Positions 12,604 to 61,143 of a stretch of DNA of 64,000 nt are shown here, one piece after another. The notes below the pieces were generated by a model. The model did not search any database. It was not told the DNA's origin and saw nothing but the letters and a program-made list of their open reading frames with translations. This stretch comes from an uncultured bacterium. GTDB lineage: Bacteria > Patescibacteriota > Minisyncoccia > Phycocordibacterales > UBA6065. Location of the stretch: the NCBI GenBank assembly GCA_963841935.1, contig CAWJEP010000005.1, positions 69,845 to 133,844 of the forward strand, read 5' to 3'. Within the stretch, counting starts at the first letter, position 1; each line of letters begins with the position of its first letter. The position numbers and the translations under genes were made by a program.

Positions 12604-12669
12604 TTTGTCCCGTGCTAACCTGAAAACTCAACCCGCCTCCGCTAAAGCTATTGCGAGGCAAGCAAAAAT

Positions 12670-28107: not shown

Positions 28108-28141
28108 CGCGCGAATTGCGCTAATCTTGATTTGCAGCCAT

Positions 28142-28212: not shown

Positions 28213-28284
28213 TAATTGACGGATTTTTAAAAGTCAGTATTGTAAGTTCAAACAGCACTTTCAATTTCAACCACAAGGAGATTT

Positions 28285-42200: not shown

Positions 42201-42926
42201 TCGCTCCGGTCTCGGGCGTCATCACTTCCATAAAAGAAGAAGGCAAAGAAAGAATCATTTCCGTCATGCCGGACGTTGAAGACCGCGCCAAAGGCAAAGA
42301 CGCAAAAGGCGGTGAGATAGAACTCACAACTCATCCGAAGCGCGTGCTCCTCGTCAAAGTCGGCGACAAAATCGCCAAAGGCCAAATTCTCACCGACGGC
42401 TCCGCTTCAATAGACGAAATTTTCGAATTCGCCGGCAGGGAAGCGGCTATGGATTACATTATTCGAGAAATCGGCAAGATTTACGAACTTCAAGGCGAAA
42501 CGGTTTCGAGAAAGCACATCGAAATCATCGTCAAACAGATGTTCTCCAGAGAACGCATAAGCATGGCAAACGACACGCGGTTTACCGACGGCGACATCGC
42601 CGACGTCTACGACCTTCGCGTTGAAAACGCTCGCGTCAAAGAGCTCGGCAAAACCGGAGCAGAAGCCACGCCGGCGGTCATGGGCATCACCGAAGTTTCG
42701 CTTTCGCGCCAAAGCTTTCTCTCGTCGGCATCATTCCAGCACACGACTCGCATATTCGTCTAGTGCCGCCGTCAAGGGCTCCGAAGACCATCTCCAGGGA
42801 CTGAAAGAAAATGTCATTATCGGTCGCGTCATTCCGGCCGGCACGGGTTATAAGGGCTCTCCGAAATACGATATGATAAAAGAAGTTCAGTCGAAAATCC
42901 CTCCGCGTTCCGAAGATTCCCGTTAG
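39230..42926 (+). CDS. rpoC: DNA-directed RNA polymerase subunit beta', with an apparent frame change about 60 codons before the C-terminus
   Basis: Zn-finger [19 protein letters not shown] and catalytic [12 protein letters not shown] are present. The ORF ends at 42763 (..[10 protein letters not shown]). The universally conserved C-terminus ([28 protein letters not shown]) continues in the +1 frame to 42926. The junction is within 42758-42764. Confidence 0.9.
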
Positions 42927-42969
42927 TTTTCCGCGGTAGCCGATTATTCGCCTTCGATAATACTTAAAA

Positions 42970-44702
42970 ATGTCGAGCGAAGTAGAACAAATAAAAGAAA
43001 GATTGAATATCGCCGATGTCGTCGGCGGTTATCTCAAGCTTGAAAAAGCAGGTCAAAACTTCAAAGCCAAGTGTCCTTTTCACAACGAAAAGACGCCGAG
43101 CTTTTTTGTCTCGCCCGACAGAGGAAGTTATTATTGTTTCGGCTGCGGCGCGCACGGAGACATTTTTTCTTTCGTTGAAGCTTTTGAGGGAGTTGATTTC
43201 CGCGGCGCCCTGAAAAGCTTGGCGGCGAAAGCCGGCGTGGAATTAAAAGGAGGAGACAGGACGGGCGACAACAAGAAAGAAAGATTATACGCCGCCATGG
43301 AAGCCGCCGCCGAATTCTTCGAAACGGAACTTTCGAATAATTCGGCGGCTCGGGATTATGTTTTATCCCGCGGTATTACGGAAAAAACTATTCATTCTTT
43401 CCGAATAGGCTACGCGCCGTCAGAATGGCGGACGCTTAGAACGCATCTTGAAGCAAAAAAATTCGGCATAAACGAACTTTTTGCCGCCGGGCTCGTCAAG
43501 AAAAATGAAAAAGGCGATTTCTACGATGTTTTCCGCGGACGAGTGATGTTTCCGATTGCCGACTCATCCGGCCGCGTCGTGGCTTTCAGCGGTCGGACGC
43601 TCGATGAAAAAGAAAATCCGCCAAAATATTTCAACACGCCGGAGACGGAACTTTATTCGAAATCCCATACGCTTTTCGGTCTCGATAAAGCCAAATCTTC
43701 GATTAGGAAATTCGACCACGCTATTTTGGTCGAAGGTCAGATGGATTTGGTGATGTCTCATCAGGCGGGATTTACCAACACGGTCGCCGTTTCCGGCACG
43801 GCTCTTTCGGAAAACGCCGCCGACGAAAGCGCGTCCGGAATTTCTCTCATCACGCGCTTTCGAAAAATATCAAAATCGCCTTCGACCCGGATGAAGCGGG
43901 AATCAAAGCGGCGCTTCGCGCCGCGCGAATCGCTTTGTCCCTCGGTATGGATGTCAAAATCGCGGCTGGATGTAAAAGGCGAAGATCCCGGCGGATACTA
44001 TCCGCCGAGACCCGAAAGCTTGGAAAGAGCTCTCGCGGCGGAAAAAATGGCGTCGTGACATTTCTCGTTGATTCGATCTTGGAAAAGACTAACGATTTGA
44101 AAAAAATCGCAATCGCCGTGAGAGAACAAGCTTTTCCGTTTATTGTTCTAATGGAAAACAAAACCGACAGGGATAGATTCGTGAAAGAGATTCACGAGAA
44201 GACCGGCATAAGCGAGACGGCGCTTTGGGAAGATCTGAAATCGACGGAAAAGCCGCTACGGAATTCGCCCGCGCCGTCGCCCGAAAACTCGCTTCGCTCA
44301 AACAGTTCTCGCTCCGCAGGCGCCGGTTTCTCCGCTTCCAACAGAGCACTAGGAATCTTGGCGCTCGTGTCGGAGAAAGGCGACGCGGCGGCATTCACTG
44401 AGAAATTAAAAGCCGCGTCGCCAAGCGATTTTGAGAGATTTGAGACGATGACAAAGGAGGAAAAAGGCGAACTCGCCTTCGAAGCGGAGGTATTGTATGA
44501 TGTGAAAGATTTGGAAAAAAATTTCGACGAACTCGTCCTTCACATAGAAGAAGGACGATTGGCGTCTCTTCTTGAACAAAAATTCGCGGATATTTATAAA
44601 TCTGAAAAAGAAAAAGATGTGGGCAAAGCCAAGACGCTTTTGAAAGAAGCCGGCGACATAATGAAACGAGTAAATGAAATAAAGCAAAAACTAAGAAAAT
44701 AA
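42970..44702 (+). CDS. dnaG: DNA primase DnaG, reading frame broken at three points (about 43865, about 43960, about 44050)
   Basis: Zn-ribbon [30 protein letters not shown]. The RNA polymerase domain is present. The TOPRIM motifs continue only by switching frames: ..GTALSEN..RFRK (frame 1), then [33 protein letters not shown] (frame 3), then [24 protein letters not shown] (frame 1), then [14 protein letters not shown] plus the C-terminal domain (frame 3). Two junctions sit in A-runs (cgaaaaata, ggaaaaaatgg). Confidence 0.75.
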
Positions 44703-44706
44703 AAAT

Positions 44707-45888
44707 ATGAAAAAGAAACAAAAAAAATCAAAAGCCAAAGTCAAAAAAGTAAAAGCCCTGCCTCGCCGGCAGGCGGGCAAAAAGCCGAAGAAAGCTCCGA
44801 AGAAAAAGCTCTCGAAAAAAGCCGAAGACCAAAACAAAAAAGCCGCCAAGCTCATCCATAGAGGCCGTGAGCGCGGCTTCGTGACTTACGACGAAATTCT
44901 CAAAGAGTTTCCGACCGTTGAAGACGATGTGACTTTTCTCGACCACCTCTACGAGAAACTTCAGCAAGCCGGCATAGATATTCTCGATTCCGGAGGCATG
45001 CTCGACACACCGGTGGAAGAAAGCGGCAAGAAATACGCTTTTCACAAAGGCGAAAAATCCTATGACTCGATTCAAATGTACCTCAAAGAAATCGGTCAAT
45101 ACGCTCTCGTCAACGCCGCCCGAGAAAAAGAATTGGCGCGTCGCATCGAGAAAGGCGACAAGGAAGCCGTCGGTCTTCTCGCCAAAGCCAACCTCCGTCT
45201 CGTCGTCTCGATTGCCAAGAAATACGTCAATCGAAGCCCCGATTTGACACTTCTAGACCTTATCCAAGAGGGTAACTTGGGTCTTTTTAAGGCCGTGGAC
45301 AAGTTTGATTGGACCAAAGGCTATAAGTTCTCGACATACGCCACTTGGTGGATTAGACAGGCCATTACGCGCGCTTTGGCCGACCAAAGCCGCACCATTC
45401 GCGTGCCGGTGCATATGGTTGAGACGATTGCCAAATACAAGCAAGTCGTCCGCCGTCTTTCTCAAGATCTCGGCCGCGATCCATTGGCAGATGAAATCGC
45501 CACGGAAATGGGCATAGATGTCGAGAAAGTTTATCAAATAGAAAAGATAGACCAAGACACAGTGTCACTCGAATCGCCGGTTGGCGACGAAGATGAAGGC
45601 AAGTCCACGCTCGGAGATTTTCTTTCCGACGACAAAATCCTTTCTCCAGACCAAGAATCTTCACGACGCATTCTTGCAGACCAAGTGAAAGAAATTCTCG
45701 GCGAGCTTTCTCCGAAAGAAAGAAAAATATTGGAAATGAGACACGGACTAAACGACGGAATTACTCATACCCTAGAAGAAGTGGGGAAGGAGTTCGGCGT
45801 CACCCGCGAACGCATCCGCCAAATCGAAGCCAAAGCTCACGAAAAAATCCGCCAGCACGGAAAAATAAACAGACTGAAGAATTATTAA
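44707..45888 (+). CDS. rpoD: RNA polymerase primary sigma factor
   Basis: Lys-rich N-terminus, then regions 1.2 to 4: [87 protein letters not shown]. The dnaG-rpoD linkage is conserved. Confidence 0.9.
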
Positions 45889-45896
45889 ATAAAAAA

Positions 45897-45930
45897 CCGC
45901 AAACATATCTCAAGTTTGCGGTTTTTTTGT
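45897..45930 (+). terminator. Rho-independent terminator after rpoD
   Basis: CCGCAAAC-ATATCTCAAG-TTTGCGG followed by TTTTTTTGTT. Confidence 0.5.
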
Positions 45931-46249
45931 TGCTGGGCGGAAAGTGGATAACCCCTCGCTTGCTTTTTAGAAGTAATTTCATTAAAATAGAAGAGTCTTT
46001 GAGCCCTTCAAAGAATAGATACTTGATTTATAGAAAAGAAATGCCCCCAAAGGCGGGGGCATTAGCTTGATTGCTCTGGCAACATTTCTAACAAAAACGT
46101 GGCGAGGTTCAGTTTCAAAGCTGACAGAAAAACTCGCAATGGTGTCTTAAGGCCTTAAGACTTCGAAAAGAATTGAATTCTACGAGCGACTTGCTGGTGC
46201 CTCTGTATTTGTGGGTATTTGCACCAATAAATTTAGGATATCATATTTT

Positions 46250-47731
46250 ATGACAATCTCCAAAACAGACTATCTCTTGTGGCGAGAGTGCAAGAAAAAT
46301 ACGTGGATAAAACTTCACAAACCGGAAATATTTTATGCGGTGGAGCTTTCCGATTTTGAAAAATCTATTATTGAAAGGGGGAATGAAGTTGAAGCAGAAG
46401 CACAGAAACGTTTTCCGACAGGAGTTTTGATTGAAGGTCGAGACGAACAGGCGCAAAAGCTCACGCAGAAATATATCGCCGACAAAGAGCGGACTCTTTT
46501 TCAGCCTGTGTTTCTCAAAGACGGTTTTCTCGCGGCACTCGATATTTTGCAATACGACAAAGAGACTGGGAAATATTCGATATTTGAAATCAAAGCATCG
46601 AATGATGTGGACGAGAAAACCCATCTTTATGACTTGGCTTTCCAAGTTGCTCTTCTCAAGAAATGCGGAATCAAAATCGATATCGCGAACATCATTCATC
46701 TCAACTCAAAATATGTGAGAAACGGCGAGCTAGATATCGAGAAACTTTTCACCATAAATAATCAGACGAAAGAAGTCGAAGAACTTCTGCCGAAAGTCGA
46801 ATTCGAAATGGAAGCGGCGAAAGAATATCTTTCGCAGGAAAAAGAACCTTCAGGATATTGTGATTGTGTCTACAAAGGCCGCTCGGCGCACTGCGCCACA
46901 TTTTCATATTCCAATCCGACCGTTCCTGAATACGGCATTCATGATATCGCTCGCATCGGTATGAGTAAGAAAAAACTCCAAGAACTCGCCGACAGAAGCA
47001 TTTTCAAAATTGAAGACCTGCCCGACAACATTGAACTTTCGGAAATCCAAAAGAATCAAGTCGATGCTTATATTTTCGACAGAGTTTCTATAAAGAAACT
47101 GGAGATTGGTCAGGAATTAAAAAATTTGGTTTTCCCTCTGTATTTTCTTGATTACGAAACATATCCGTCGGCCATTCCTCGGTTTGACGGCTTCTCGCCA
47201 TATCAGCAGATTCCTTTTCAATATTCGCTTCATATCGTCGAATCACCGGACGCGGAGCCGATTCACAAAGAGTTTCTTCATACGGGAAGTGACAATCCGA
47301 GCGAACATTTCGCCAAATCGCTTCAAAAACACATAGGTCCAAAAGGAAACATAATCGTCTGGAACAAAAAGTTCGAATGCAAGATAAACAACGAACTCGC
47401 CAAAAGGCTTCCGGAAACCAAATCTTCTATCGATGATTTAAACGCTCGCGTCTACGACCTTATGGATATTTTTTCCAAACAATTTTATGTTCACAAGGAT
47501 TTCAAAGGTTCGACATCGATAAAATATGTTTTGCCGGTTCTCGCACCGGAACTTTCGTACAAGAAACTAGAAATCCAAGAAGGCGGCACCGCGTCGCAAA
47601 AATGGAATGAGATTACGACTTGTGAAATGGATCAAAAAGTAAAAAAAGAGATCGCGGAAAATTTAAAAGAATATTGCAAACTAGACACATACGCGATGTA
47701 CGCCATTTGGAAACATCTTTTTGAGTTATAA
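46250..47731 (+). CDS. DUF2779-family protein (Cas4/RecB-like PD-(D/E)xK nuclease N-domain plus RNase H-like exonuclease C-domain)
   Basis: A Cys cluster (CDCVYKGRSAHC) typical of Cas4/RecB-like nucleases. The characteristic LYFLDYETYPSAIP (FLDFET) motif of DUF2779. Start at ATG 46250. Confidence 0.55.
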   Translation: MTISKTDYLLWRECKKNTWIKLHKPEIFYAVELSDFEKSIIERGNEVEAEAQKRFPTGVLIEGRDEQAQKLTQKYIADKERTLFQPVFLKDGFLAALDILQYDKETGKYSIFEIKASNDVDEKTHLYDLAFQVALLKKCGIKIDIANIIHLNSKYVRNGELDIEKLFTINNQTKEVEELLPKVEFEMEAAKEYLSQEKEPSGYCDCVYKGRSAHCATFSYSNPTVPEYGIHDIARIGMSKKKLQELADRSIFKIEDLPDNIELSEIQKNQVDAYIFDRVSIKKLEIGQELKNLVFPLYFLDYETYPSAIPRFDGFSPYQQIPFQYSLHIVESPDAEPIHKEFLHTGSDNPSEHFAKSLQKHIGPKGNIIVWNKKFECKINNELAKRLPETKSSIDDLNARVYDLMDIFSKQFYVHKDFKGSTSIKYVLPVLAPELSYKKLEIQEGGTASQKWNEITTCEMDQKVKKEIAENLKEYCKLDTYAMYAIWKHLFEL

Positions 47732-47739
47732 TTTACTTT

Positions 47740-48456
47740 ATGCAACTCATTTTTTTAGACACGGAGACGACGGGCAACGACGCGGCAAAAGACCGGCTTT
47801 GTCAGATCTGCTATAGGATTGGCACAGAAACGAAAACGGAATATTTCAAACCGCCAGTGCCAGTATCGGTCAAAGCGATGAGCATCACGCATATCACGAA
47901 CAAAATGCTTGCGGACAAAGAGCCATTTATCGCAAGTAAGATGTATAAAGAACTTGAGAAACTTCTTCCGAAAAATATTTTGGTCGCTCACAACGCCAAA
48001 TTCGATATAGCAATGCTTTTCGCCGAAGGAATAAAGGTCAAAGATTTCATCTGCACATTGCGTGTTGCCAGAAATCTAGATACTGACAATGTAATACCCG
48101 AATACAATCTGCAGTATTTGAGATATTATCTAGATCTTGAAGTGGCAGGAACGCCACACGACGCGGAATCGGATGTCAACGTCCTTGAAGCCGTTTTCAA
48201 CAAATTGCTTGAAAAAATTATGGAGAAAATTCCAAATCGTGAAAAAGCCATCGAGGAAATGGTGAAAATATCAAGCAATCCGGTGTTATTCAAAAAAATA
48301 AATTTCGGTAAATACAAAGACAAAGACGTTGAAGAAGTTTTAAAAGCCGATCGTCGCTATCTCGAATGGTTACTTGCCGAAAAACGCAAAACTCCGGAAC
48401 TCGAAGAAGATTGGATTTATACGTTGGAAAATTATCTGGGACGGAAGACGGTCTAA
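47740..48456 (+). CDS. DnaQ-like 3'-5' exonuclease (DEDDh, ExoX-like) with C-terminal DUF3820-like KGK domain
   Basis: Exo I motif FLDTETTG, Exo II motif VAHNAKFD, Exo III motif PHDAESD. The C-terminal NFGKYKDKDVEEVLKADRRYLEWLL resembles the exodeoxyribonuclease X C-terminal/DUF3820 domain. Confidence 0.65.
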   Translation: MQLIFLDTETTGNDAAKDRLCQICYRIGTETKTEYFKPPVPVSVKAMSITHITNKMLADKEPFIASKMYKELEKLLPKNILVAHNAKFDIAMLFAEGIKVKDFICTLRVARNLDTDNVIPEYNLQYLRYYLDLEVAGTPHDAESDVNVLEAVFNKLLEKIMEKIPNREKAIEEMVKISSNPVLFKKINFGKYKDKDVEEVLKADRRYLEWLLAEKRKTPELEEDWIYTLENYLGRKTV

Positions 48457-48458
48457 AT

Positions 48459-49256
48459 TTATTTAACCAAATTTTTCCAATATCTTTCTAAATCTTCCGA
48501 AACGCTTTCGTTATTGGTAGATCCTTGTGGTTGAGCAACGACAAAATCTTTTTTCCATACCTCATATCCTTTCGGAAATGTCTTGCTAAAGATGTCCGAA
48601 TATCGCTCAAATCTTTCCTTAAGACTTAGACTCTCGTTATACCTTTCAAACAGCACATAATACGCTAAATCATTTTCTTTAAACCATTTAACTGCATTTT
48701 TCTCTCCCGTCCATGGAATATTACGTAATGAGAAATAGCAGCATATTAGATTACTCATACTATATAAAAGTCGAATTTCTAACGCTTCATGATAAATCGG
48801 GTCTTTCGAATCAAAATATCTTTTGTTTGCTACGTAGTTATAGTTTGCATTTTGCCAGAAGTTATATTTTTCTGAGAATGGCACATTAATGACCATGTCT
48901 TTGAAACCTCTTTCAATAAGGGCCGATGTTTTTCCTGATTTATCAAATTTTATATCAGCTTTTTGTAACCATACAGGTAAAGTTGAATTACCGTTAGCCA
49001 CAAATTCCACATGGTTATCAAGAAAGTTTCTGACCTTATCTAAATCAAGATGGTCGAAGAAATATATATCAGCGAAAGTTTCATCTATATACGTAAAAAC
49101 AGACTGTATAGTCTTATATTTTGCTTTAAGAATAACTATAAGATCAATATCACTGGATGATCCAGCCTTTCTTGTTCCGTGAGAACCTGTAAGAAAAACA
49201 CAGTCTACATTTTCATTCTTCTTTAGTTTCTCTATGACCTGATCTAGAGAAAGCAT
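48459..49256 (-). CDS. Pol-beta-superfamily nucleotidyltransferase (ANT/Lnu-like) in a low-GC patch
   Basis: N-terminal NTase signature FLTGSHGTRKAGSSSDIDLIVIL (GS...G.....SDxDL). At 265 aa it is about the size of aminoglycoside or lincosamide nucleotidyltransferases. The gene is visibly more AT-rich than its flanks. Confidence 0.5.
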   Translation of the reverse strand: MLSLDQVIEKLKKNENVDCVFLTGSHGTRKAGSSSDIDLIVILKAKYKTIQSVFTYIDETFADIYFFDHLDLDKVRNFLDNHVEFVANGNSTLPVWLQKADIKFDKSGKTSALIERGFKDMVINVPFSEKYNFWQNANYNYVANKRYFDSKDPIYHEALEIRLLYSMSNLICCYFSLRNIPWTGEKNAVKWFKENDLAYYVLFERYNESLSLKERFERYSDIFSKTFPKGYEVWKKDFVVAQPQGSTNNESVSEDLERYWKNLVK

Positions 49257-49260
49257 AATT

Positions 49261-49953
49261 TTAGGAGTTAAGGTTGCTTAAGATTATTTGAATATAATTA
49301 TTGACTGCGTCATAAGGAATCGCTCCGTCGGTGTTGGCGATGTTGCCTTTTGGCGTGACGAAAACGGTGTAAGGGGTGCCCTGACCGCCGGCGTTTATGG
49401 CGTCTTGGTAATCGGCTTGGACTTTTGCCGCTTCTTTACCGCTTGAGAGACATTCATTGAAAGCCGTAACGTTTAGACCGACATCGCTCGCGATTTTCGG
49501 AAGTTCCGCCGGGTCGAGTCCGTCATTGGATGGCGTGACGGAAAATATTTCATCGAGATAATTCCAGAAAGTGTTATTTCCGCCAAGGTCGGCGGCACAC
49601 TCCAATGCCTCTGCTTCGTTTGTCGATTTCGAGTGAAGCGGAAACGAACGATAAACCCAGGCGACTTCGCTCGTTGAAGCGTATTCGCTGTAAATATCTT
49701 TGAGAGTCTGGTGGAATTGCTTGCAATAAGGGCACTCGGTGTCGGAATAATCTATTATTTTTATCGGAGCGTTTATGCTGCCGAGAATATGGTCCTCCGC
49801 CGTTACTGGTCGCACCGTGATACCGGCGTCAGGCGTCGCGGTTTGTGCCGGAATGACGGTAGTCGAAGATTTTCCTCCCACAAAATACACGGCAATGGCG
49901 ATAAAAACTCCCGCGACGACGATGGCTATGGGCACGAGGAGGTTCTTATTCAT
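49261..49953 (-). CDS. DsbA-like thiol:disulfide oxidoreductase (signal-anchored thioredoxin fold)
   Basis: N-terminal TM helix (LLVPIAIVVAGVFIAIAVYFV) and the CxxC active site DTECPYCKQFHQTL. Start at ATG 49953. Confidence 0.7.
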   Translation of the reverse strand: MNKNLLVPIAIVVAGVFIAIAVYFVGGKSSTTVIPAQTATPDAGITVRPVTAEDHILGSINAPIKIIDYSDTECPYCKQFHQTLKDIYSEYASTSEVAWVYRSFPLHSKSTNEAEALECAADLGGNNTFWNYLDEIFSVTPSNDGLDPAELPKIASDVGLNVTAFNECLSSGKEAAKVQADYQDAINAGGQGTPYTVFVTPKGNIANTDGAIPYDAVNNYIQIILSNLNS

Positions 49954-49960
49954 ATTTACA

Positions 49961-50539
49961 TTATAACCCAAGAGAGAAGTTCATCGAACTGTTACCGACT
50001 TTTTCCCAATGTGAAGTGTCTAGTTTGATTTCCAGAATTTTTCCGCCGAAATCTTTGTATTTTAGCGAGCCGTTTTTCAAAGCGTATTCGTAAAGCTCCT
50101 TTGTGATTTTCACGTCGTCAATACAGTAATCGATGATTTTCTGAATTTCGCCTTGTTTCCACCAAGTGATGGCTTCCAGACCGTGACCACTTTTGTTTTT
50201 TCCTAGCGTGGCTTCGGTGACATTGTCGAGCTTTACGCGCCGCCCGAGCGATTTGTGTATTTCTTTCAAAAGGTCCACGCTTTTTATTTTGCCGAGGTCA
50301 CCGTGATAATACTTGTTCAAAAGAGGAATATCGAAATGGTCGCTGTTGAATCCTATCAAGATATCCGTGTGTTCGAGAATCGGCCAGAGGTTCTTGAAAT
50401 CTTTTTCAAGATAACTCGTGTAAGAATCCGTCTCCGAGTCGTGAATGCACACGACGGAAATATCGAGAGCCGACGGGTCGCTCGAGCCGACGTCTTGAAA
50501 AAGATTTTTTGTTTCCACGTCGAAGACGATTTTTCTCAT
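49961..50539 (-). CDS. DEDDy-type 3'-5' exonuclease domain protein
   Basis: VFDVETKN (Exo I), GFNSDHFDIPLL (Exo II) and YCIDDVKITKELY (Y-x3-D Exo III). Confidence 0.55.
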   Translation of the reverse strand: MRKIVFDVETKNLFQDVGSSDPSALDISVVCIHDSETDSYTSYLEKDFKNLWPILEHTDILIGFNSDHFDIPLLNKYYHGDLGKIKSVDLLKEIHKSLGRRVKLDNVTEATLGKNKSGHGLEAITWWKQGEIQKIIDYCIDDVKITKELYEYALKNGSLKYKDFGGKILEIKLDTSHWEKVGNSSMNFSLGL

Positions 50540-50567
50540 TGGTGGAAACTATTGTATCATAGGGATT

Positions 50568-51335
50568 ATGGAGAGAGTCTTAAATCTTTATAAGCCGCTT
50601 GGCGAAACGCCGCTTCAAACCCTCGAGGCATTTCAAGCGGCCCATCCGGAATACGCCAAGGAAAAAATGACTTACGCCGGTCGCCTTGACCCCTTGGCCG
50701 AAGGCGTGCTCATCGCTCTTGTCGGTGAGGAAACAAAAAATAGGGAAGCTTACACCAATTTGCCGAAAGAGTACGTCTTCGAATGGATATTCGGGCTCGA
50801 GACGGATACTTACGATTTGCTGGGGTTAGTAAAAGAAATAAAAAACAGCCGCGAAACGGCTTCTTCGCTATTGGAAAAATATTTTGCGGATTCCGCGCAG
50901 AAATTTTCACAAAAATATCCGCCGTTCTCGTCAAAAGTCGTCGGCGGCAAGAGTCTGTTCTCTTTAGCCAAAGCCGGAAGGATTTTCGAAAAAGATTTGC
51001 CTTCACACGAAGTGGAAATCTATGAATCAGAATATTTGGGGAACAGGGAAATTTCCAAAGAAACGTTCTTGAAAACTATCGAGGAAAAAATAGATTCCGT
51101 CAGCGGCGATTTCAGGCAAAAGCAGATTCTTTTAGATTGGAAGAATCGGCTTTCAAAATCCGAAAGAGAAACATACGTTGTCCACAAAGCTCGCCTCGCT
51201 GTCAGTTCCGGTTTTTACGTCAGGCAATTCGTGCTTGATATCGGAAAACACTTTGATACTGCCGCGGTGACTTTTTCCATACTGCGCACTAAAGTGGGTT
51301 CCTATAAGGCGAATAAGTCGCTTCACTTGCGTTAA
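50568..51335 (+). CDS. truB: tRNA pseudouridine synthase (TruB-like)
   Basis: AGRLDPLAEGVLIALVGEETK contains the catalytic Asp in the G(T/R)LD context of TruB-family enzymes. 255 aa. The exact subfamily is uncertain. Confidence 0.55.
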   Translation: MERVLNLYKPLGETPLQTLEAFQAAHPEYAKEKMTYAGRLDPLAEGVLIALVGEETKNREAYTNLPKEYVFEWIFGLETDTYDLLGLVKEIKNSRETASSLLEKYFADSAQKFSQKYPPFSSKVVGGKSLFSLAKAGRIFEKDLPSHEVEIYESEYLGNREISKETFLKTIEEKIDSVSGDFRQKQILLDWKNRLSKSERETYVVHKARLAVSSGFYVRQFVLDIGKHFDTAAVTFSILRTKVGSYKANKSLHLR

Positions 51336-51440
51336 AAGGTCATATGTGCCATACTTGCGGGGTCTCAAGTTCTCAAGGGTAAGGATTTTCTTAGCCAAGA
51401 GGCGACTGGTCGGAGACGAATTATCAAAAGAAGCAACAAA

Positions 51441-51728
51441 ATGGCTAAGAAATTGTACATAGGAAATCTTTCCTACGGCACGACTTCGGAATCGCTCAAG
51501 GCCGCCTTTGAAAAGGCAGGCACTGTTGTCGACGCTATCGTTCTCACGGACAAAATGACGGGCCGCTCACGCGGTTTCGGTTTCGTCACGATGGAGGACG
51601 CTGACGCCGACAAGGCGATCGCGATGTTTGATGGCAAAGACCTCGAAGGTCGTCCCATCAAAGTCAACGAAGCTCAACCGAGAGAGGAACGCCCGAGACG
51701 CGACTTCGGTCCGCGCCGCGCGTACTAA
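51441..51728 (+). CDS. RRM-type RNA-binding protein
   Basis: RNP-2 motif LYIGNL and RNP-1 motif RGFGFVTM. A 95-aa single RRM with an Arg/Asp-rich tail. Confidence 0.75.
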   Translation: MAKKLYIGNLSYGTTSESLKAAFEKAGTVVDAIVLTDKMTGRSRGFGFVTMEDADADKAIAMFDGKDLEGRPIKVNEAQPREERPRRDFGPRRAY

Positions 51729-51733
51729 ACAAA

Positions 51734-51757
51734 AAGCCCCGCCTAGGCGGGGCTTTT
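51734..51757. terminator. Bidirectional rho-independent terminator
   Basis: GCCCCGCC-TA-GGCGGGGC, flanked by an A-run upstream and TTTTTGTT downstream. It lies between the RRM gene (+) and typA (-). Confidence 0.6.
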
Positions 51758-51763
51758 TGTTGC

Positions 51764-53539
51764 CTATTCTTTTTTCTTGCCTTTCTCTCGGTCGGCTTTT
51801 TTGAGAAATTGTTTTCGCAAGCGAATGGTCTTTGGCGTAATCTCCAAATACTCGTCGTCTTTCATAATTTCGAGGCCGCGTTCTATTGAAAGCGTAAACG
51901 GGGGAGTGAGAAGTATGGCGTCATCTTTGCCGGCGCTGCGATAGTTGCTCATGACTTTTTCTTTCGACGGATTGACGTCGAGGTCATCGCCCTTTGATGT
52001 GTTGCCGACAACCATTCCCTCGTAAATCTCGGCTCCGGGAGAAATGTAAAGCATTCCGCGGTTCTGGAGGTTGTAGAGAGCGAAACCCACGGCTTTGCCT
52101 TTTTCCATGGAGATCATGGAGCCAAATTCGTGTTTCTCAATCGTTCCGACTTCCGGCCGGAATTCAATGAAGCGCGAAGAAAGAATTCCTTCGCCTCTCG
52201 TGTCAATGATAAATTCTCCTCTGTAGCCCAAAAGTCCGCGCGTCGGGATTTCAAACGTCAATCTGGATAAGCCGTTTTCTTCTTTTATGTTCGTCAGCAC
52301 GCCTTTGCGCGCGGAAAGTTTTTTTATGACGTCGCCTCCAAATTCGCTTTTGACGTCGGCGTAAACTTCTTCAAACGGTTCGCAGATGACGCCGCCAATT
52401 TCTTTTTTGATGACTTGCGGTTGCGATACTTGGAGTTCAAATCCTTCGCGGCGCATATTTTCGAGAAGTATGGATATATGAAGTTCGCCTCGACCATAAA
52501 CCTCGAAAATATCTCCGCCGGAAAAGTCAATCTTTAAACCCACGTTTATCTCAAGCTCTTTTTCTAGTCGCTCGCGGATTTGCCGAGTGGTGACAAATTT
52601 GCCTTCACGGCCGGCGAGCGGGGAATTATTAACGAGAAAATTGAGAGCAATCGTCGGTTCGTCTATGGCAATCGCCGGCAAGGCCTGTTGTTCCGCCGAT
52701 TCGCATATGGTTTCTCCTATGAAAATGTCCGGTAAGCCCGCGACCATGGCTATATCGCCGGCGATTGCCTCGCTCGTTTCCTCCCTATCCAGGCCTTTAA
52801 ATGCGTATATTTTGGTAATTTTGCCGGTTCTAGACTCTCCCGTAGGCTTTTTTATTACCACATTTTGACCTGTCTTTACTTTGCCTTCATATATCCTGCC
52901 CACGGCGAGACGGCCGACGAAATTATCGTAAGCGAGATTGAATGGTTGCATTCGAAGCGGCGCGTTCTCGTCCGCTTTCGCCGCCGGCACGCTCTCAAGA
53001 ATCGTGTCGAGAAGGGGAGAAAGGTCGGAAGAATTTTCTTCGAGCGTGCGTTTCGCGATACCTTGTCTACCGATGGCGTAAACAGTTTTGAAATCCAGTT
53101 GTTTATCGTTCGCGCCCAGCTCGATGAAAAGGTCGAGAACTTCATCTAAAGCTTCTTTCGGCCGCGCCGCCGGCTTGTCTATTTTATTTATGACGACGAT
53201 GGGCTTCATTCCGAGTTCCAAAGATTTTTTCAAAACAAATCGCGTCTGCGGCATCGGACCTTCTTGGGCGTCGACGACGAGAAGCACGGTGTCGATTGAG
53301 CGGAGAACGCGTTCGACTTCGGAACCGAAATCGGCGTGTCCAGGGGTGTCGACGATATTTATTTTCGTGCCTTTATAAAAGACGGAAGCGTTCTTTGCGT
53401 ATATGGTAATGCCACGCTCTTGTTCGAGCGCGTTGGTGTCCATTGAAAAACCCTCTTGGGCGGCGCCCGTTTGTTTGAGTATGGCGTCGGTCAGGGTCGT
53501 TTTTCCATGGTCGACGTGAGCGATGATTGCGATATTTCT
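51764..53539 (-). CDS. typA: GTP-binding protein TypA/BipA
   Basis: [22 protein letters not shown] and [16 protein letters not shown], with EF-G-like domains. Start at ATG 53539 (MEIRNIAII). Confidence 0.9.
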
Positions 53540-53805
53540 GATTTCCATAATTCTTTCCGTAAAAATAAAATCCGCCAGCTGGCGGAGAACCCTTTGGCCC
53601 GTCGAGAGACTATAACAGATAGGGGAATAAAAAGAAAGTCTTACTATTTCCAAAAGCTTTTTTATGTTTTATGATAATTTTTCTTTTTTCGGCGATTATT
53701 TGACAGGCCATAAATTAAATATTATCCGGTGAAAATTACATATTTTACCGGGGAATAAAATACTTTTTGTGGATTTTATTTCGTGGCTTTAAATGATTTT
53801 TTAAG

Positions 53806-53846
53806 TATTAATGTTTATCAATGTATAGAAATCATTAGTATTTTTA
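53806..53846 (+). promoter_or_regulatory. Conserved ~40-bp upstream element, copy 1 (shared with 61297-61337)
   Basis: ATTAATGTTTATCAATGTATAGAAATCATTAGTATTTTT is identical in both copies. Copy 1 lies about 160 nt upstream of the giant-gene start, in an AT-rich intergenic region. Confidence 0.4.
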
Positions 53847-54005
53847 TTTTCCTCTTTTTTAAATCTAAGACTGCCGGTAAATCGCAAAATCTTTTTAAAA
53901 GTCCAAAAAGGTAATCAAATTGGTTTTTTCCGCGGAAAAAAGACCTGGAGTTTTTCAACAGATTTGGCTAACCTAAAGCCTTTTTTGTAAATAGAATTAT
54001 GACCA

Positions 54006-57000
54006 ATGGATGACACTGTTCTGATCGAAGGGAAAACACATATTTCATCGAGACGCGCCGCGAAATTAAGCGGTTACACTCAAGATTACGTCGGCCAGCT
54101 TGTTCGCGGCAAAAGAGTCACGGCCAAAAAAATTGGACGCTCGTGGTATATACAAGAAATTTCGTTCCGAGATTATATTTCCGGTAATCCTGTATTAATA
54201 AAAAAAGAATTCTCGAATGACCGAGAAAGGTTAATAAATCGCGAAAAAGTAGAGAAAGAAAAGGTCAGTGGTTACCATCCTGAAAAAATCAGACACGGAA
54301 TACTTCACAGATTTCAGAAATTGACAGCGTTTACCCTCTCCCTCCTCATCGTCTCCTCAGCCATTGCCTTCGCTAATACGGTCAGTCCTCAAGAAGTGGC
54401 GGGATATGTTTCCTCCACAACGGATAAAGGATTGGCCATGGTTTCCTCGGCTGAAGCACTTCTTCGTCAAAGCGCGGACTTGGCCAATTTATACGGCAAA
54501 GAAAACACGGCGCTCGTGGCCGCCTCGGGCGAAAATCCTCTTTTCATCGGAGCCCAAACGGTGGCCCTCGGCGTCTACGAAACATTCCATCCGGCGATTC
54601 AAAACGCCGAATATACTTTGGCGGCGCTCTTTGCCCCGAGAGTTTCTAACATCGCCGTCAGTAACGTTTCGGAATCTCCGATAACCATTAATCTCGCTTC
54701 GAGCACGACGCCAATGACAAGTTCTTCAAGCGCTCTCGCCGTTTATACTCCGCCCGTCACCACGGCAAATCCCGTCATATCTTCGCCAAACAACGTCTAT
54801 TACCAGACTCTCGGCGAGACGCAAGACGAAGTCCAAAGCCAAATAGCCGCCGCCATAGAGCCCCTGATTTTCCAGATTAACGCTTTGGGATACAGAGGAG
54901 GAACGACGCAGTCAAACGTCCAAAACGTCTACGACAACATCGATTTCAGCCGCATTAACGGAGCAAACATCGACAAAAGCTTCGTGAGCGATTCGGCCTT
55001 TACCGGCGGAACCATTAGCGGCGCGAGTATTACCAACTCATCGATTGACGTTCTAAACGTCGGAAACGGTCTCTCGAACATCGCCGGCGATTTGACCGTT
55101 TCCGGCACGACAACAGTCAACAATCTCTTTGCCGCTAATTCTTTGACGAGTAATTCAACCACGACCTCTGCCACCTCGACTAATCTCTACGCCGCGAACG
55201 TCGTGTTGGCAAACGCCACGACGACAAATCTCTTTACCGACTCACTCAACGCTTTGTCGGAGACAATCGATAGCATCACTTCAAATGTCGCGACCATATT
55301 CGGCCTGACCGCGACGAATGCCACGACGACCTCCGCCACGACGACGAATGAATTCGACGCAAACCTCGTCGCTTCAAACGCCACGACGACGGGGAACGCG
55401 TACGTCGGCGGCAATCTCACGGTGGGCGGCAATTCAGTTACCCTGGGCAACTCGAGCGCCAACACGCTCGTCGTCAATTCCGCCGTCGGCTCAAACCTCA
55501 TTCCGAACCAAAACGCCACGTACGACATCGGCTCTCCGGCCTATTACTGGAACAACGAATACGTCGCCACCCTAAACGTCAACAATCTCTCGGCCGCTTC
55601 TTCGACCATCGGCGGAACGACAGACAGCAATTTCACCATTAACTCCGGCAACGGCACTCCCGACACCGAGAGTATGTCACTCACATTCTTCCGAGGCACC
55701 GTGGTGCCAAACGCCGTCATCGCTTGGAACTCTACGACCAAACGTTTCGAATTAAACCAAAGCGCCTTCATTCAAAACGGCTCTACAAACCTTCTTTCCT
55801 CGCCTACGCTTTCGCTCGAGGGTCAAGCGGGACAAACCGGAGACATTTTCGATATCGCGAGCTCAACCGGACAAAACTATTTCAATATCTCCGCCACTGG
55901 CACGACAAACACTTTGGGACTAACTTTCACGAGCGCAACGGGAACCTCCGCCACCACGACCAACTTCTACGCTTCACTTTTGAATTCCATAACGGGAACG
56001 ATTACCAACTTCACTTCAAACTTGGCTACGATTTTCGGTCTGACCGCGACGAATGCCACGACAACGAACGCCACGACGACAAACCTAGTGGTCTTCAATT
56101 CTCCAGTCGCTCCGGCTTTCATCGCCACCTCGACTACGGCTGTGTCTTCGCTTCAACAACTTCTCGTTAACGCAAGTACCACTCTCCAAAACTTCACGTT
56201 CCAAAATGCCACGGGAACAAACGCCACGACGAGCACTCTTTACGTTTCCGGTCAGTCAATCCTTGCGGCGACGGGAGGGGATGTGGGAATCGGACTTACG
56301 AACCCTTCTTATCCGCTCGATATTTATAACGCGGCTAGTGGTGCTTTGAGATTGAATGATTCGAACAATGCAGCCATTATTTCTACCGTAAAAGAATTGG
56401 CCGCGACAAATTTAAATTTTACTGTCAGCGGAACCAATGCTATGACAATAAGATATAACGGAAACATCGGTATCGGCACGACGACACCTTGGGCGTTCTT
56501 CTCTATAAACCCGAACGCCAACTCGCAAGGTCCGCTATTCGTTGTCGGCTCATCGACCGCCACACAATTTATCATAAGCAACACAGGTTTGGTCGGCATC
56601 GGCACGACTTCACCTCTTAGCAAGTTTGATATTGTCAGCAACTACAACGATACCACCGATACTTTCCGAATCGATGCTCCAGACCCGGGAGATTATCATT
56701 TGACTATAAATCCGTATGTGGTCGGCAACGGCAACGTCGGATACAAATTTAAAACCACCGATACCGCGGTCACGGTCACGGCCATGGCTATCACGGGTAC
56801 TGGAAACATAGGTATCGGCACGACGACGCCGGACGCCACGCTCTCCTTAAACGGAAGCGGCGGCTCATACATAGACTTTGGAAATAGCGGGCCAGTCAAG
56901 GCGTACATCGGAACATCGGGAATATTCGGCGCGGCAAGCACGGATGATTTGCGCGTTCGTTCCGATGGTCCAAACATTGATTTTGGTTTTTCTGGACAAA

Positions 57001-60000: not shown

Positions 60001-60978
60001 CAACATAGTCAATCCCGGTTACAATTCCATCGGCACGTGTTCCTCCGACGAAAGAGTTGAAACAAAATATTACTCTCGCTCTCCGACAACACCGGACTCT
60101 CGGTGATTAACGCTTTAAATCCGGTGTCCTTCAATTGGAATCCGGCGTTTTCAAACGACCAGAGCGAACAATACGGATTTATAGCGCAGGACATTCAAAA
60201 GGTTTTGCCGAGCTTGGTCTCGACGAGTTCTCCGACGGCTCTCACGCCTGACGGCACGTTGTCGCTCAACTACAACGGACTCTTCGCTCCGATAGTCAAA
60301 TCGATTCAGGAACTTGACGCCGATTTGTCTTCGACAACGCAAGCGGTATTCGCTCTGCAGACAGAAGTGGCCGGCATAGAGAATGTTTTGAGTAGCAATT
60401 ACTCGACATCGTCGGCGAGCGTCTCAACGACTACCGTCTCCAACGTAGTTACAAACTGGTTCTCGTCTCTAGGCGTGGCTATCGAAAATGGAGTATTTCA
60501 TTTTGGAAACCTCATCGCCGACACCTTGACCGCCACGACGGAAGTGGTGAACACGGTCAACGCGGAGACTATTACAACGGCAAACTTTACCGTCGAGCCG
60601 GCCGCGGCCGCGATGTCATCATCGGGTATTACTATTTACGACCGCGCTTCGGGCAAACCGACTTGTCTCTTCGTGAACAACAACACAATAGAAGAAACAG
60701 CCGGCGCCTGCGGCACGTTTGATTCTTCGTCAAACAACAATTCAAGCAATCAAAATAATTCCGGAAACAATCCTACGGACGGCAATGGGGGAACGGACAC
60801 TTCGACTTCGACTCCATCCACGGACACCTCGACGTCCACTCCTTCGTCCGACGTCTCGACATCCACTCCGTCAACAGACGTTTCCACTTCCACTCCGTCC
60901 ACTGATACTTCGACTTCCACGCCTTCGACCGACACCACGGACGCTTCATCCACCGACGCTACATCGACAACGCCGTAA
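54006..60978 (+). CDS. Giant (~2,300 aa) surface fibre-like protein: N-terminal excisionase-type HTH-like module, TM helix, GNVGIGTTNP-type repeats, C-terminal Peptidase_S74 intramolecular-chaperone domain, Ser/Thr/Pro-rich tail. The frame is broken twice (about 59075 and about 60060).
   Basis: The N-terminus ISSRRAAKLSGYTQDYVGQLVRGKRVTAKKIGRSWYIQEISFRDYI fits the HTH_17/excisionase pattern (..A..LG.s...v.rlvr.G.l.a.KiGR.Wri). A single TM helix (LTAFTLSLLIVSSAIAFA) follows. Then more than 1,500 aa rich in T/N/S/G with about 14 repeats of GGNVGIGTT(N/T)P..KLDV roughly every 77 aa. The continuation ORFs 59009-60106 and 60103-60978 keep the repeats. They end in NKILLSLSDNTGLSVINALNPVSFNWNP...QYGFIAQDIQKVLPSLVS...LSLNYNGLFAPIVKSIQELDADL, which is the tail-fibre/endosialidase chaperone (Peptidase_S74) signature. 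The frame breaks coincide with homopolymer tracts (ggcatcgg-acg versus ggcatcggGacg, gaaaca versus gaaaaca). Confidence 0.6.
54333..55913 (+). repeat. 1,581-bp block identical to 61830-63410 (copy 1)
   Basis: Direct comparison shows the two segments are the same at constant offset 7,497 from 54333/61830 up to a T/C difference at 55914/63411. The six-frame ORF track gives identical ORF translations in both copies. Confidence 0.8.
60790..60960 (+). repeat. Tandem 27-nt (9-aa TSTSTPSTD-like) Ser/Thr/Pro-rich coding repeats at the C-terminus of the giant protein
   Basis: TDTSTSTPSTDTSTSTPSSDVSTSTPSTDVSTSTPSTDTSTSTPSTDTTDASSTDATSTTP, encoded by near-perfect tandem copies of acttcgacttccac(g/t)ccttc(g/a)(a/t)c(c/a)gac. 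Confidence 0.6.
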
Positions 60979-61068: not shown

Positions 61069-61143
61069 TCCGGGATAGCTCAGCGGTAGAGCAGTCGCCT
61101 GTTAAGCGATTGGTCGGTGGTTCGATCCCACCTCCCGGAGCCA
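61069..61143 (+). tRNA. tRNA-Asn (anticodon GTT)
   Basis: TCCGGGATAGCTCAGCGGTAGAGCAGTCGCCTGTTAAGCGATTGGTCGGTGGTTCGATCCCACCTCCCGGAGCCA. Anticodon stem GTCGC/GCGAT, loop CTGTTAA. The 3' CCA is encoded. Confidence 0.8.

Follow-up and report, generated by a model that had tools for sequence, protein, structure and literature searches.

A replaceable Cas4-like nuclease slot in a conserved housekeeping region of a Patescibacterial genome

Between rpoD and truB in the 64 000-nucleotide stretch of DNA analysed here (the window) lie five genes, four of which are conserved in Patescibacteria and belong to a stable housekeeping part of the chromosome. The nucleases among them are probably a DNA-repair and end-processing set rather than a new defence module. 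On the same reading, the block would belong to the conserved core genome of a Paceibacteria-type Patescibacterium and not to a mobile island. Genes for a Cas4-like nuclease, an ExoX-like exonuclease and an MrfB-like exonuclease are recurrently co-localised with a variable slot; any functional coupling among these nucleases is inferred.

The five open reading frames and their domain calls in the first-pass annotation were confirmed. The interval from rpoD to truB was found to consist of two convergent transcription units, with the five genes on the strands + + − − − and not on alternating strands as had been described. The features of the locus are as follows.

44707..45888, + strand: rpoD, conserved left flank of the slot, 97% protein identity to rpoD of the relative L082
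45891..45927, no strand: bidirectional rpoD terminator hairpin, a perfect 14-nt inverted repeat between A and T runs
45901..47738, + strand: replaced segment (spacer and DUF2779 gene), non-homologous to the nearest relative, L082
46250..47731, + strand: DUF2779 protein, 493 aa, N-terminal Cas4-like 4-Cys PD-(D/E)xK nuclease and C-terminal DEDDy 3′-5′ exonuclease
47740..48456, + strand: ExoX-like DEDDh 3′-5′ exonuclease with ExoX-like_C tail, 238 aa (Pfam)
48459..49256, − strand: ANT/KNTase-like two-domain nucleotidyltransferase (NTase), 265 aa, window-specific insertion
49261..49971, − strand: DsbA-like membrane-anchored thiol-disulfide oxidoreductase (CPYC), native (Pfam and translation)
49961..50539, − strand: stand-alone DEDDy 3′-5′ exonuclease, RNase_H_2/MrfB(YprB)-like, 192 aa, native (Pfam)
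50568..51335, + strand: truB, conserved right flank, TruB_N in syntenic L082, L084 and L086

All five genes had been described as a compositionally distinct patch, and this holds only in part. Against a background of 34 genes (GC 0.493 ± 0.028, GC3 0.554 ± 0.049) atypical composition was confined to three of the five, these being the NTase (GC 0.328, z −6.0; GC3 0.282, z −5.5), DUF2779 (GC z −3.1, GC3 z −2.3) and ExoX-like (GC z −3.1, GC3 z −2.1) genes. The composition of the DsbA gene was typical (GC z −0.2, GC3 z −0.5) and the GC of the DEDDy gene was reduced at codon positions 1 and 2 only (GC3 z −0.3), an effect of amino-acid composition; both genes are native.

The gene order rpoC-dnaG-rpoD-[slot]-DsbA-DEDDy-(hisS)-truB-RRM-typA was found in L003, L009, L021, L050, L053, L055 and other loci, and in L082 to L086; linkage of the genes thus holds in related genomes. 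Each scan was of the 80 best-scoring loci, the sampling of lineages therefore being limited, and among the best-scoring DEDDy-centred metagenome loci the DEDDy and DsbA genes were adjacent and co-directional in 57 of 80. DEDDy→DsbA is a native unit of which DEDDy is the first gene. The DsbA-like protein, encoded between nuclease genes, is not evidently connected with DNA metabolism; it matches Pfam Thioredoxin_4 (1.5e-20) and DSBA (2.5e-12), and its translation has a hydrophobic N-terminus and contains ECPYC. Its start is probably the ATG at 49953, giving 230 aa, the length at which the counterpart in L001 was also called.

The slot, bounded by the DsbA stop codon on one side and the rpoD terminator on the other, is a hot spot of replacement whose content has been repeatedly swapped between relatives. 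Sequence of at least 2.5 kb past DsbA was available in 43 loci, and in every one of them the slot gene following DsbA encoded a Cas4-like Fe-S nuclease, either DUF2779 (25 loci) or a fusion of a UvrD helicase and a 4-Cys nuclease (18 loci). The genome-derived loci were chosen for the presence of DUF2779; the unbiased DEDDy-centred subset gave 30 of 30 (DUF2779 13, UvrD and 4-Cys nuclease 17). At least five lineages of DUF2779 occupy the slot, and the slot genes were lower in GC than their flanks in the window, L002, L082 and L094. Replacement is most apparent between the window and L082, where the proteins are 97% (rpoD), 92% (DEDDy), 88% (DsbA) and 86% (ExoX) identical and DUF2779 only 42%; the DUF2779 proteins of L082 and L094 are 544–550 aa in length and both are 42% identical to that of the window. 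Collinear DNA homology with L082 is ∼80% over 40567–45900 and is found on the right side over 49270–54695. Sliding identity drops from 0.85–0.91 to 0.46–0.61 within the replaced segment and returns at 47739, placing one homology breakpoint at 45900, exactly at the rpoD terminator, and the other exactly at the start codon of ExoX. The simplest route by which relatives would exchange the slot is natural transformation with homologous recombination in the conserved flanks, and such exchange would account for the lower GC, the flipped orientation and the divergent alleles of the slot; in Saccharibacteria competence and integration by homologous recombination with flanks of ∼545 bp have been shown (PMC10633639).

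The NTase gene is missing from all related loci, known only from this window and placed exactly where the convergent ExoX and DsbA genes end, between their two stop codons. Sixty-seven homologues were found, all at 49% identity or less and on Patescibacteria-type contigs only, where the neighbours were NUDIX, GNAT and glyoxalase genes; no nuclease lay beside them in the contexts examined. The AF2 model (pLDDT 92.7) gave Foldseek TM scores of 0.56–0.59 to ANT(4′), and no sequence match to an AMR family was obtained. The NTase gene is accessory, ANT/kanamycin-nucleotidyltransferase-like, and a recent acquisition unrelated to the nucleases. The locus comprises one unit of the DEDDy exonuclease followed by the DsbA-like protein, extended by the NTase in this genome alone, and a second unit of the replaceable slot, with DUF2779 or the UvrD/4-Cys nuclease, followed in the window's immediate clade by the ExoX-like DEDDh protein.

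The folds of the nucleases were confirmed and their catalytic residues are invariant. More than 3700 homologues of DUF2779 (∼60% identity, across Patescibacteria) and more than 3000 of the ExoX-like protein (64–88% identity) were found, and DEDDy is widespread (2281 representative clusters), marking all three as strongly conserved lineage genes. Purifying selection on both catalytic sites of DUF2779 is strict, and neither shows diversification. The ExoX-like gene, 8 nt 3′ of DUF2779, has kept its position at 81–88% identity in L082 to L086 and L093. Its product matches Pfam RNase_T (4.4e-17) and carries a C-terminal element as first annotated; this element is ExoX-like_C (PF20600, 3.4e-09), and the KGK/DUF3820 domain named for it was not reported by Pfam at E ≤ 0.01. 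The DEDDy protein matches RNase_H_2 (1.1e-10), and residues D7, E9, D70, Y138 and D142 are invariant.

Domain fusions point to repair. Relatives of DEDDy (36–38% identity) carry a C-terminal fusion to MrfA-type helicases (DEAD, WHD_HRQ1 and MZB), which have been assigned to the DNA-repair branch of the YprA family (PMC12458937), and MrfB, a 3′-5′ DNA exonuclease, acts in the repair of mitomycin C damage (PMC11194089). DUF2779 is fused to a PIF1 helicase in L020; a PIF1-like gene lies 3′ of DUF2779→ExoX in L049, and a SNF2 helicase adjoins DUF2779 in five loci. The nucleases would serve in DNA repair and in the processing of DNA ends: resection or cleavage of 5′ strands or flaps would fall to the Cas4-like domain and trimming of 3′ ends to the DEDD domains, in concert with helicases that are encoded elsewhere or, in relatives, fused.

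The region had been suggested to be an island for defence or DNA uptake, or else an uncharacterised nuclease module of five genes. None of these readings is supported. No related locus has the NTase, and its homologues never accompany nucleases; core synteny, the widespread conservation of the nucleases, the repair-helicase fusions and the lack of a mobile signature (no tRNA at the borders and no flanking repeats were found) also argue against these suggestions. Almost no phage carriage was seen. The observation that no known defence system is recognisable stands: PADLOC returned only generic Cas4, DEDDh and NTase matches for the region, with no system-specific match, GajA or Cas1/Cas2, and no CRISPR array was found.

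It is possible, if rather unlikely, that five independent housekeeping and accessory genes are neighbours through frozen synteny and have no functional relationship, and the ExoX-like protein could then be a DnaQ-type replicase proofreader, as its matches to Pol III epsilon models (85.9 bits) would allow. Synteny within a housekeeping block is no proof of functional coupling, since rpoD and truB are equally syntenic and the entire rpoC-typA block is conserved, making adjacency little informative. The DsbA and NTase proteins have no DNA-related role, in distant lineages ExoX has unrelated neighbours (MFS/ABC in L173, PPIase/typA in L174), and outside the lineage DUF2779 adjoins ExoX in only ∼3–4 of 80 species loci. 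However, a Cas4-like Fe-S nuclease is retained in 43 of 43 loci while the identity, orientation and allele of the slot gene vary. ExoX adjoins DUF2779 or the UvrD-nuclease in at least four arrangements or lineages (the window's clade, L042/L049, L017 and, in reversed order, L175), far above the ∼1-in-1000 per-genome chance for a given neighbour, and the exonuclease and nuclease families are linked to helicases by domain fusions.

We consider it improbable that the slot is a defence hot spot in which DUF2779 (or the UvrD-nuclease) and ExoX form a RecBCD-like innate module degrading phage DNA, replacement reflecting an arms race with phage inhibitors. In its favour, the slot has a lower GC and has undergone xenologous replacement between backbones that are nearly identical, and conflict or defence genes too are typically low in GC and often replaced in this way. 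Cas4-like and DEDDh domains, for which PADLOC gave its generic matches, take part in CRISPR adaptation, and there is a resemblance of the UvrD-type occupant to GajB; DUF2779 has been treated under 'immunity connections' by the mSphere authors (PMC13621843), and horizontally transferred genes of Patescibacteria are enriched in defence functions (PMC12455944). Against this, besides the PADLOC and CRISPR results and the strict purifying selection on both catalytic sites, DUF2779 and ExoX are near-universal and 60–88% conserved, unlike sporadic defence genes. Outside the lineage DUF2779 lies amid unrelated housekeeping genes, in most lineages its neighbours are pheST, gyrB, hisS and the like, its fusion partners are repair-type helicases, and it is quasi-essential in JCVI-syn3.0, a phage-free minimal cell (PMC13621843).

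It is likewise improbable that the nucleases trim or degrade strands imported through ComEC, for recombination or for nucleotide salvage in these nucleotide auxotrophs, with an extracytoplasmic DsbA folding the uptake machinery. In favour of this, CPR bacteria have conserved Com genes and type IV pili, and competence has been shown experimentally (PMC10633639); Mollicutes and Patescibacteria, in both of which DUF2779 is prominent, are nucleotide auxotrophs; the cluster includes a DsbA-like protein, and dprA was identified by eye on the gene map elsewhere in the window (22828–23685). Against it, no com or pil gene was adjacent in any of ∼170 loci examined, the com system is dispensable for growth of Saccharibacteria, which argues against salvage (PMC10633639), the annotated genome table lists no DUF2779 for the competent Saccharibacteria, and sequence inspection revealed no signal peptide or TM segment in the three nucleases.

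The components resemble several known systems. The NTase shares its fold, an N-terminal Pol-beta-type NTase and a C-terminal helical bundle, with ANT(4′)/kanamycin nucleotidyltransferase, LinB and ANT(6), and it has the G-S...D-x-D motif and a length similar to antibiotic nucleotidyltransferases, yet its identity to the structures 6nmk, 6un8 and 1kny is only 11–14% at the TM scores given. The ExoX-like protein has the RNase_T-type DEDDh core of E. coli ExoX and the DnaQ family and a short ExoX-like C-terminal element. ExoX is its top NCBIfam match, but it scores 93.9 bits against an equivalog cutoff of 202 and is below the cutoff for every Pol III epsilon model, and its phylum-wide conservation is far above that expected of a redundant repair exonuclease. 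DEDDy shares the family RNase_H_2 (PF13482) with MrfB/YprB of the Bacillus subtilis mitomycin-C repair pair MrfAB (YprAB); it differs in having Tyr rather than His as general base and in lacking the TPR tail, no direct sequence match to the MrfB structure 8UN9 was obtained, and an MrfA-like helicase is absent from the window and from the surroundings of DEDDy in every locus.

The DUF2779 protein agrees with the PF11074/DUF2779 family (MMSYN1_0389 of JCVI-syn3.0; NCBIfam UU173 family) in its layout of a Cas4-like PD-(D/E)xK domain and a DEDD(y) exonuclease and in the D..ExK and D-E-D-Y-D residues; family and window protein alike are uncharacterised. It retains four Fe-S cysteines where the Mycoplasma protein has two, and is ∼490 aa in length, in contrast to ∼650 aa for UU173-type proteins. 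Membership of the UU173 subfamily was rejected (72.9 bits against a cutoff of 225 bits). To our knowledge no Chi-type regulation is known for the DUF2779 cluster, which unlike AddAB-type machines includes neither a helicase nor an AddA/AddB-type heterodimer pair. With AddAB, Dna2 and the Cas4-family Fe-S 'iron-staple' machines, as well as the COG2251/TM0106 RecB-family nucleases, the protein shares the Cas4/AddB/Dna2-type 4-Cys PD-(D/E)xK domain. As in the Fe-S helicase-nuclease machines, this domain is paired with 3′-5′ exonuclease domains, helicases occur with it in relatives as the UvrD-helicase and 4-Cys nuclease of the slot and as PIF1-DUF2779 fusions, and both PF13482 and PF11074 have been reported as fusions to DUF83/Cas4-like domains.

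The window is a segment of a Patescibacteria (Paceibacteria-type) chromosome with a mean GC content of 0.484, and the related loci compared with it carry the labels Zambryskibacteria, Taylorbacteria, Minisyncoccia and Paceibacterota. The rpoD terminator and truB enclose five ORFs, and the domain calls made for them in the first-pass annotation were every one backed by Pfam:

45891-45927, rpoD terminator hairpin, the left border of the five-ORF region (truB is the right border)
46250-47731, plus strand, DUF2779 protein
47740-48456, plus strand, ExoX-like protein
48459-49256, minus strand, nucleotidyltransferase (NTase)
49261-49971, minus strand, DsbA-like protein
49961-50539, minus strand, DEDDy exonuclease

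The genes had been described as lying on alternating strands; they actually form two convergent units, a native unit running from DEDDy to DsbA-like and a second running from DUF2779 to ExoX-like. Gene content and composition, both observed directly, contribute to a reading that we consider fairly probable: a core-genome neighbourhood made up of nucleases of the DNA-repair type, in which a slot between the rpoD terminator and the DsbA-like stop codon is replaceable by recombination and one unrelated accessory gene has been inserted, rather than a defence or uptake island.

Base composition was compared with that of 34 further window genes (GC 0.493 +/- 0.028, GC3 0.554 +/- 0.049). The NTase was an extreme outlier (GC 0.328, z -6.0; GC3 0.282, z -5.5), and both DUF2779 (GC z -3.1, GC3 z -2.3) and ExoX-like (GC z -3.1, GC3 z -2.1) had a GC content below every one of the 34 background genes. 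DsbA-like was typical, and the low GC of DEDDy was confined to codon positions 1 and 2 with a normal GC3 (z -0.3), indicating an amino-acid effect. The compositionally distinct patch that had been proposed for all five genes therefore stands for DUF2779, ExoX-like and the NTase and falls for DsbA-like and DEDDy; as only three genes deviate, it is restricted to 46.2-49.3 kb, less than the five-gene region. Two further low-GC genes were located at 28285-28821 (GC3 z -2.6), directly after tRNA-Gln (28141-28213), and at 30041-30928 (GC z -2.6), and these are possibly further acquired genes.

Neighbourhood conservation was assessed in two independent scans, each of the 80 best-scoring loci: species-representative genome loci centred on DUF2779, and metagenome loci centred on DEDDy. 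In the first, loci of the window lineage (rpoD at least 76% identical) had the order typA-truB-DEDDy-DsbA-DUF2779-rpoD-dnaG-rpoC, with neither ExoX-like nor NTase present, and in other lineages DUF2779 was found beside varying housekeeping genes, among them pheS/pheT, gyrB, hisS and rluB. In the second, 57 of 80 loci had DsbA-like after DEDDy and co-directional with it, the remainder being mostly short contigs. Both scans combined yielded 43 loci with DEDDy->DsbA and at least 2.5 kb downstream, and in all 43 a Cas4-like Fe-S nuclease was the first or second gene past DsbA-like. This was DUF2779 in 25 loci, in either orientation, and in the other 18 a UvrD-helicase/PDDEXK_1 fusion of 970-1050 aa with the 4-Cys signature (UvrD-nuclease), always convergent. 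The unbiased DEDDy-centred subset gave a slot nuclease in 30/30 loci (13 DUF2779, 17 UvrD-nuclease), and two loci (L114, L146) had the UvrD-nuclease exactly between DsbA-like and rpoD, which is the same slot.

In the window clade the ExoX-like gene came immediately downstream of DUF2779, an arrangement that occurred independently in three further loci (L017, L042, L049; gaps of 143-183 nt), and in L006 one gene separated the two. ExoX-like also adjoined the UvrD-nuclease in L086, L093 and, in reversed order, L175, and had unrelated neighbours in other lineages. The co-localisation of nuclease genes pointed out in the first-pass annotation is thus real and conserved, recurring in all 43 slot loci and, as ExoX-like adjacency, in several lineages; the genes may also be functionally coupled.

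The nearest relatives of the window diverge mainly at the slot. In L082, the nearest, and L083, identity to the window was 97% for rpoD, 92% for DEDDy, 88% for DsbA and 86% for ExoX, and the slot held a 544-aa DUF2779 only 42% identical to that of the window, followed by ExoX-like. Other relatives carried the L082-type divergent allele without ExoX-like (L094), the window-type allele (86%) without ExoX-like (L002), or the UvrD-nuclease followed by ExoX-like (L086, L093). The breakpoints can be read directly from the DNA alignment of the window with L082, in which identity of ~80% over 40567-45900 collapsed over 45901-47738, homology was back exactly at the start of ExoX-like (47739), and after a gap across the NTase (~48450-49269) it continued to 54695. 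Slot genes were lower in GC than their flanks in the window, L002, L082 and L094. At least five DUF2779 lineages were found in the slot. Co-directional DUF2779s formed a native clade, and most convergent ones clustered with DUF2779 of unrelated lineages. The window DUF2779 is a native-type allele that is inverted; import from a distant lineage was rejected, as neighbour-joining trees placed it with L002, next to the native syntenic clade.

Natural competence and homologous-recombination integration with flanks of ~545 bp have been demonstrated in Patescibacteria (PMC10633639), which offers a simple mechanism of exchange: slot content would be swapped by natural transformation and homologous recombination through the conserved flanks. 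The locus represents a clean natural case of cassette replacement between conserved flanks, consistent with Patescibacteria competence. At 46040-46063, in the spacer between rpoD and DUF2779, the minus strand has a GC-rich terminator-like hairpin, although no minus-strand gene ends there at present; it may have been left over from an ancestral state in which the slot gene lay on the minus strand, or from small minus-strand ORFs such as those of L082. There, two small ORFs for predicted membrane proteins (5335-5757 and 6009-6212; 140 and 67 aa; minus strand) sit between rpoD and the slot gene, as in L083, with no counterpart in the window.

Other irregularities were observed in the window. The dnaG gene (42970-44702) is broken into two overlapping ORFs (42970-44058 and 43935-44702), with which the intact 568-aa DnaG of L082 aligned by tblastn in frame 1 and in frame 3, both alignments covering residues 297-356; the frameshift may reflect an error of sequencing or assembly, a pseudogene or a programmed event. 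An internal duplication of 1.9 kb (54333-56232 and 61830-63774; 94.8% identity) spans the 5' part of a 1720-aa ORF (54006-59168), the L082 homologue of which has a Peptidase_S74 domain, and has its second copy downstream of tRNA-Asn (61069-61143), which suggests paralogous large surface or tail-fibre-like proteins. The ORF at 60103-60978 contains a 27-nt tandem repeat in 5.2 copies (60796-60936), encoding a 9-residue peptide repeat.

The NTase was absent from all related loci and is specific to the window. It is placed precisely between the convergent stop codons of ExoX-like and DsbA-like; in L082, L084 and L086 these stop codons touch or overlap. A joint insertion of ExoX-like and NTase, an idea arising from L002, was dropped because L082-L086 and L093 carry ExoX-like at this position with 81-88% identity and typical GC3. 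The NTase motif G-S-x(9-13)-D-x-D was present with G24, S25, D36 and D38 invariant, and 67 homologues were detectable, every one at 49% identity or less. The three homologue contexts examined were variable patches that contained NUDIX, CYTH, GNAT, glyoxalase, GrpB and glycosyltransferase genes, without nucleases or a conserved partner gene beside the NTase. The predicted structure (pLDDT 92.7) has an N-terminal alpha/beta domain and a C-terminal helical bundle, a two-domain fold shared with ANT(4')/kanamycin nucleotidyltransferase, LinB and ANT(6) (TM 0.56-0.59). At 11-14% identity, and with no resistance-family sequence match, this predicted likeness to antibiotic nucleotidyltransferases is one of fold only. 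HalB of the Hailong system was a poorer fold match (TM 0.39-0.47), and the neighbours of the NTase are ExoX-like and DsbA-like, not a HalA membrane effector. The type VII toxin-antitoxin model MntA/HepT scored 23.1 bits against a cutoff of 60; MntA is a small NTase (~100-140 aa), whereas the window protein has 265 aa with an extra domain, and no HEPN gene is next to it. Membership of CBASS, Hailong or a toxin-antitoxin pair was rejected, there being no partner gene and ANT enzymes giving the best folds. The NTase is a single accessory insertion unrelated to the nucleases. The DsbA-like protein matched Thioredoxin_4 (74.5 bits) and DSBA (47.4 bits), and its translation contains a CPYC motif and a hydrophobic N-terminal segment, LLVPIAIVVAGVFIAIAVYFVGG, a predicted anchor.

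The first-pass annotation had found no recognisable known defence system, and this was upheld. No system-specific model of PADLOC-DB 2.0 was matched by two or more neighbouring genes. The matches were to generic domains only: Cas4 (E 4e-4), DEDDh and PDC-S09/S48, with none for DsbA-like and nothing specific in the flanks, and the UvrD-type occupant gave a generic GajB match without GajA. That the slot is a defence hot spot would fit its turnover and low GC, but these matches are generic and the 64-kb window has no CRISPR-like array, and we regard this reading as very improbable. A phage or mobile-element origin was rejected, since no border repeats, integrase, transposase, phage genes or flanking ncRNA (Rfam) were found, the nearest tRNAs are at least 18 kb off to one side and 10 kb off to the other, DUF2779, NTase and DsbA-like had no PHROG match, and DUF2779 was nearly absent from viruses (16 weak matches in 2.9 M viral contigs). 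The suggestion of a defence or DNA-uptake island was consequently not borne out in this conserved core neighbourhood. The main value of the analysis is negative: there is no new defence system, and the NTase and DsbA-like genes should not be counted in any nuclease module.

DUF2779 matched PF11074 over residues 311-436 of its 506-aa ORF (145 bits against a cutoff of 23.3, E 1.8e-42). Its N-terminal domain is a Cas4-like PD-(D/E)xK nuclease with the D...ExK triad, and its C-terminal domain a DEDD 3'-5' exonuclease with all acidic residues and the Tyr/His general base. The four cysteines of Cas4-family Fe-S nucleases (one N-terminal, three C-terminal) are present as C14, C204, C206 and C215, invariant in 48/48 close homologues and present in 88-90/92 overall; from the sequence, they are putative Fe-S cluster ligands. 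Two same-slot variants (L120 7298-8800, L144 2453-3952) lack all four, with H, P, Y and L instead, and retain both catalytic sites, and the Mycoplasma homologue has a similarly reduced cysteine set. The window DUF2779 is not a CRISPR-associated Cas4 (TIGR00372 16.4 bits against 65), and its neighbours are rpoD and ExoX-like, with no cas1/cas2. No second DUF2779, and no UvrD-nuclease, was found in the 64-kb window. The ExoX-like protein combines an RNase_T DEDDh core with an ExoX-like_C element (Pfam), and fell below the cutoffs for the exodeoxyribonuclease X equivalog PRK07983 (93.9 bits against 202) and the DnaQ (Pol III epsilon) models (best PRK06309, 85.9 against 245; TIGR00573, 53.8 against 71.5). 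Sequence searches of the PDB with DUF2779, NTase and DEDDy gave nothing useful, so structure prediction was needed.

Domain fusions and active-site conservation are direct observations, and the biochemical activities are inferred. In L020 (535-3522), a 995-aa protein joins a PIF1-like helicase in frame to an entire DUF2779, and in the sister lineage L049 a separate PIF1-like helicase gene (11863-13230) comes after DUF2779->ExoX. In five loci (Terriglobales L056, L060-L062; Uhrbacteria L019), DUF2779 has as its direct neighbour an SNF2 helicase of ~1230 aa with a long repeat-rich C-terminal region. DUF2779 of Terriglobales shares ~50% identity with its Patescibacterial counterpart, which is high for such distant phyla. 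Many MAGs with Paceibacteria-type syntenic loci (L002-L081) are titled 'uncultured Candidatus Saccharibacteria', 'Gammaproteobacteria', 'Verrucomicrobia' or 'Omnitrophota', probably through taxonomic mislabelling or mis-binned contigs, and claims of cross-phylum distribution therefore need care. Every part of the context assembled for DUF2779 points towards a role in DNA repair or end processing: in one chromosomal slot it is interchanged with a UvrD-helicase/Fe-S nuclease, it occurs fused to PIF1 helicase, it is adjacent to SNF2 helicase and to ExoX-like and MrfB-like exonucleases, and both of its active sites are strictly conserved. The protein is widespread and strongly conserved, and this context yields concrete, testable hypotheses. 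It is quasi-essential in the minimal cell JCVI-syn3.0 (PMC13621843); Saccharibacteria annotations, searched for Tn-seq fitness data, contained no DUF2779 entry.

A bolder and, in our judgement, improbable reading is that DEDDy, the slot nuclease (DUF2779 or UvrD-nuclease) and ExoX-like would constitute an undescribed split DNA-end-processing machine of Paceibacteria. DUF2779 would be the functional counterpart, without a helicase, of an AddB/Dna2-type nuclease, and a dual role like that of RecBCD, in recombinational repair and foreign-DNA destruction, would drive the repeated xenologous replacement. If true, this would give a function to the quasi-essential gene of JCVI-syn3.0.

The closest described comparison for DEDDy is MrfAB, in which a helicase and a 3'-5' exonuclease together repair damage by mitomycin C (PMC11194089). 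YprA helicases that accompany MrfB or are fused with it form the DNA-repair branch of their family, and DISARM, Dpd and Druantia a separate, defence branch (PMC12458937). DEDDy is a stand-alone protein matching PF13482 RNase_H_2 (YprB/MrfB family; 42.2 bits against a cutoff of 22) with an intact active site (D7, E9, D70 and Y138-x3-D142 invariant). No MrfA/YprA helicase (DEAD with MZB/DUF1998), adjacent, fused or elsewhere, was present in the window or in ~170 loci. A full HMMER scan of 1.84 billion representatives gave 2281 relatives, including proteins of 950-990 aa with DEAD, Helicase_C, WHD_HRQ1, MZB (MrfA Zn-binding) and RNase_H_2 domains, that is, MrfA-MrfB fusions, and these were confined to the more distant relatives at 36-38% identity. 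In MrfB the general base is His (DEDDh) and the C terminus carries a TPR domain, whereas the DEDDy of the window uses Tyr138-x3-Asp142 and is complete in 192 aa with no additional domain.
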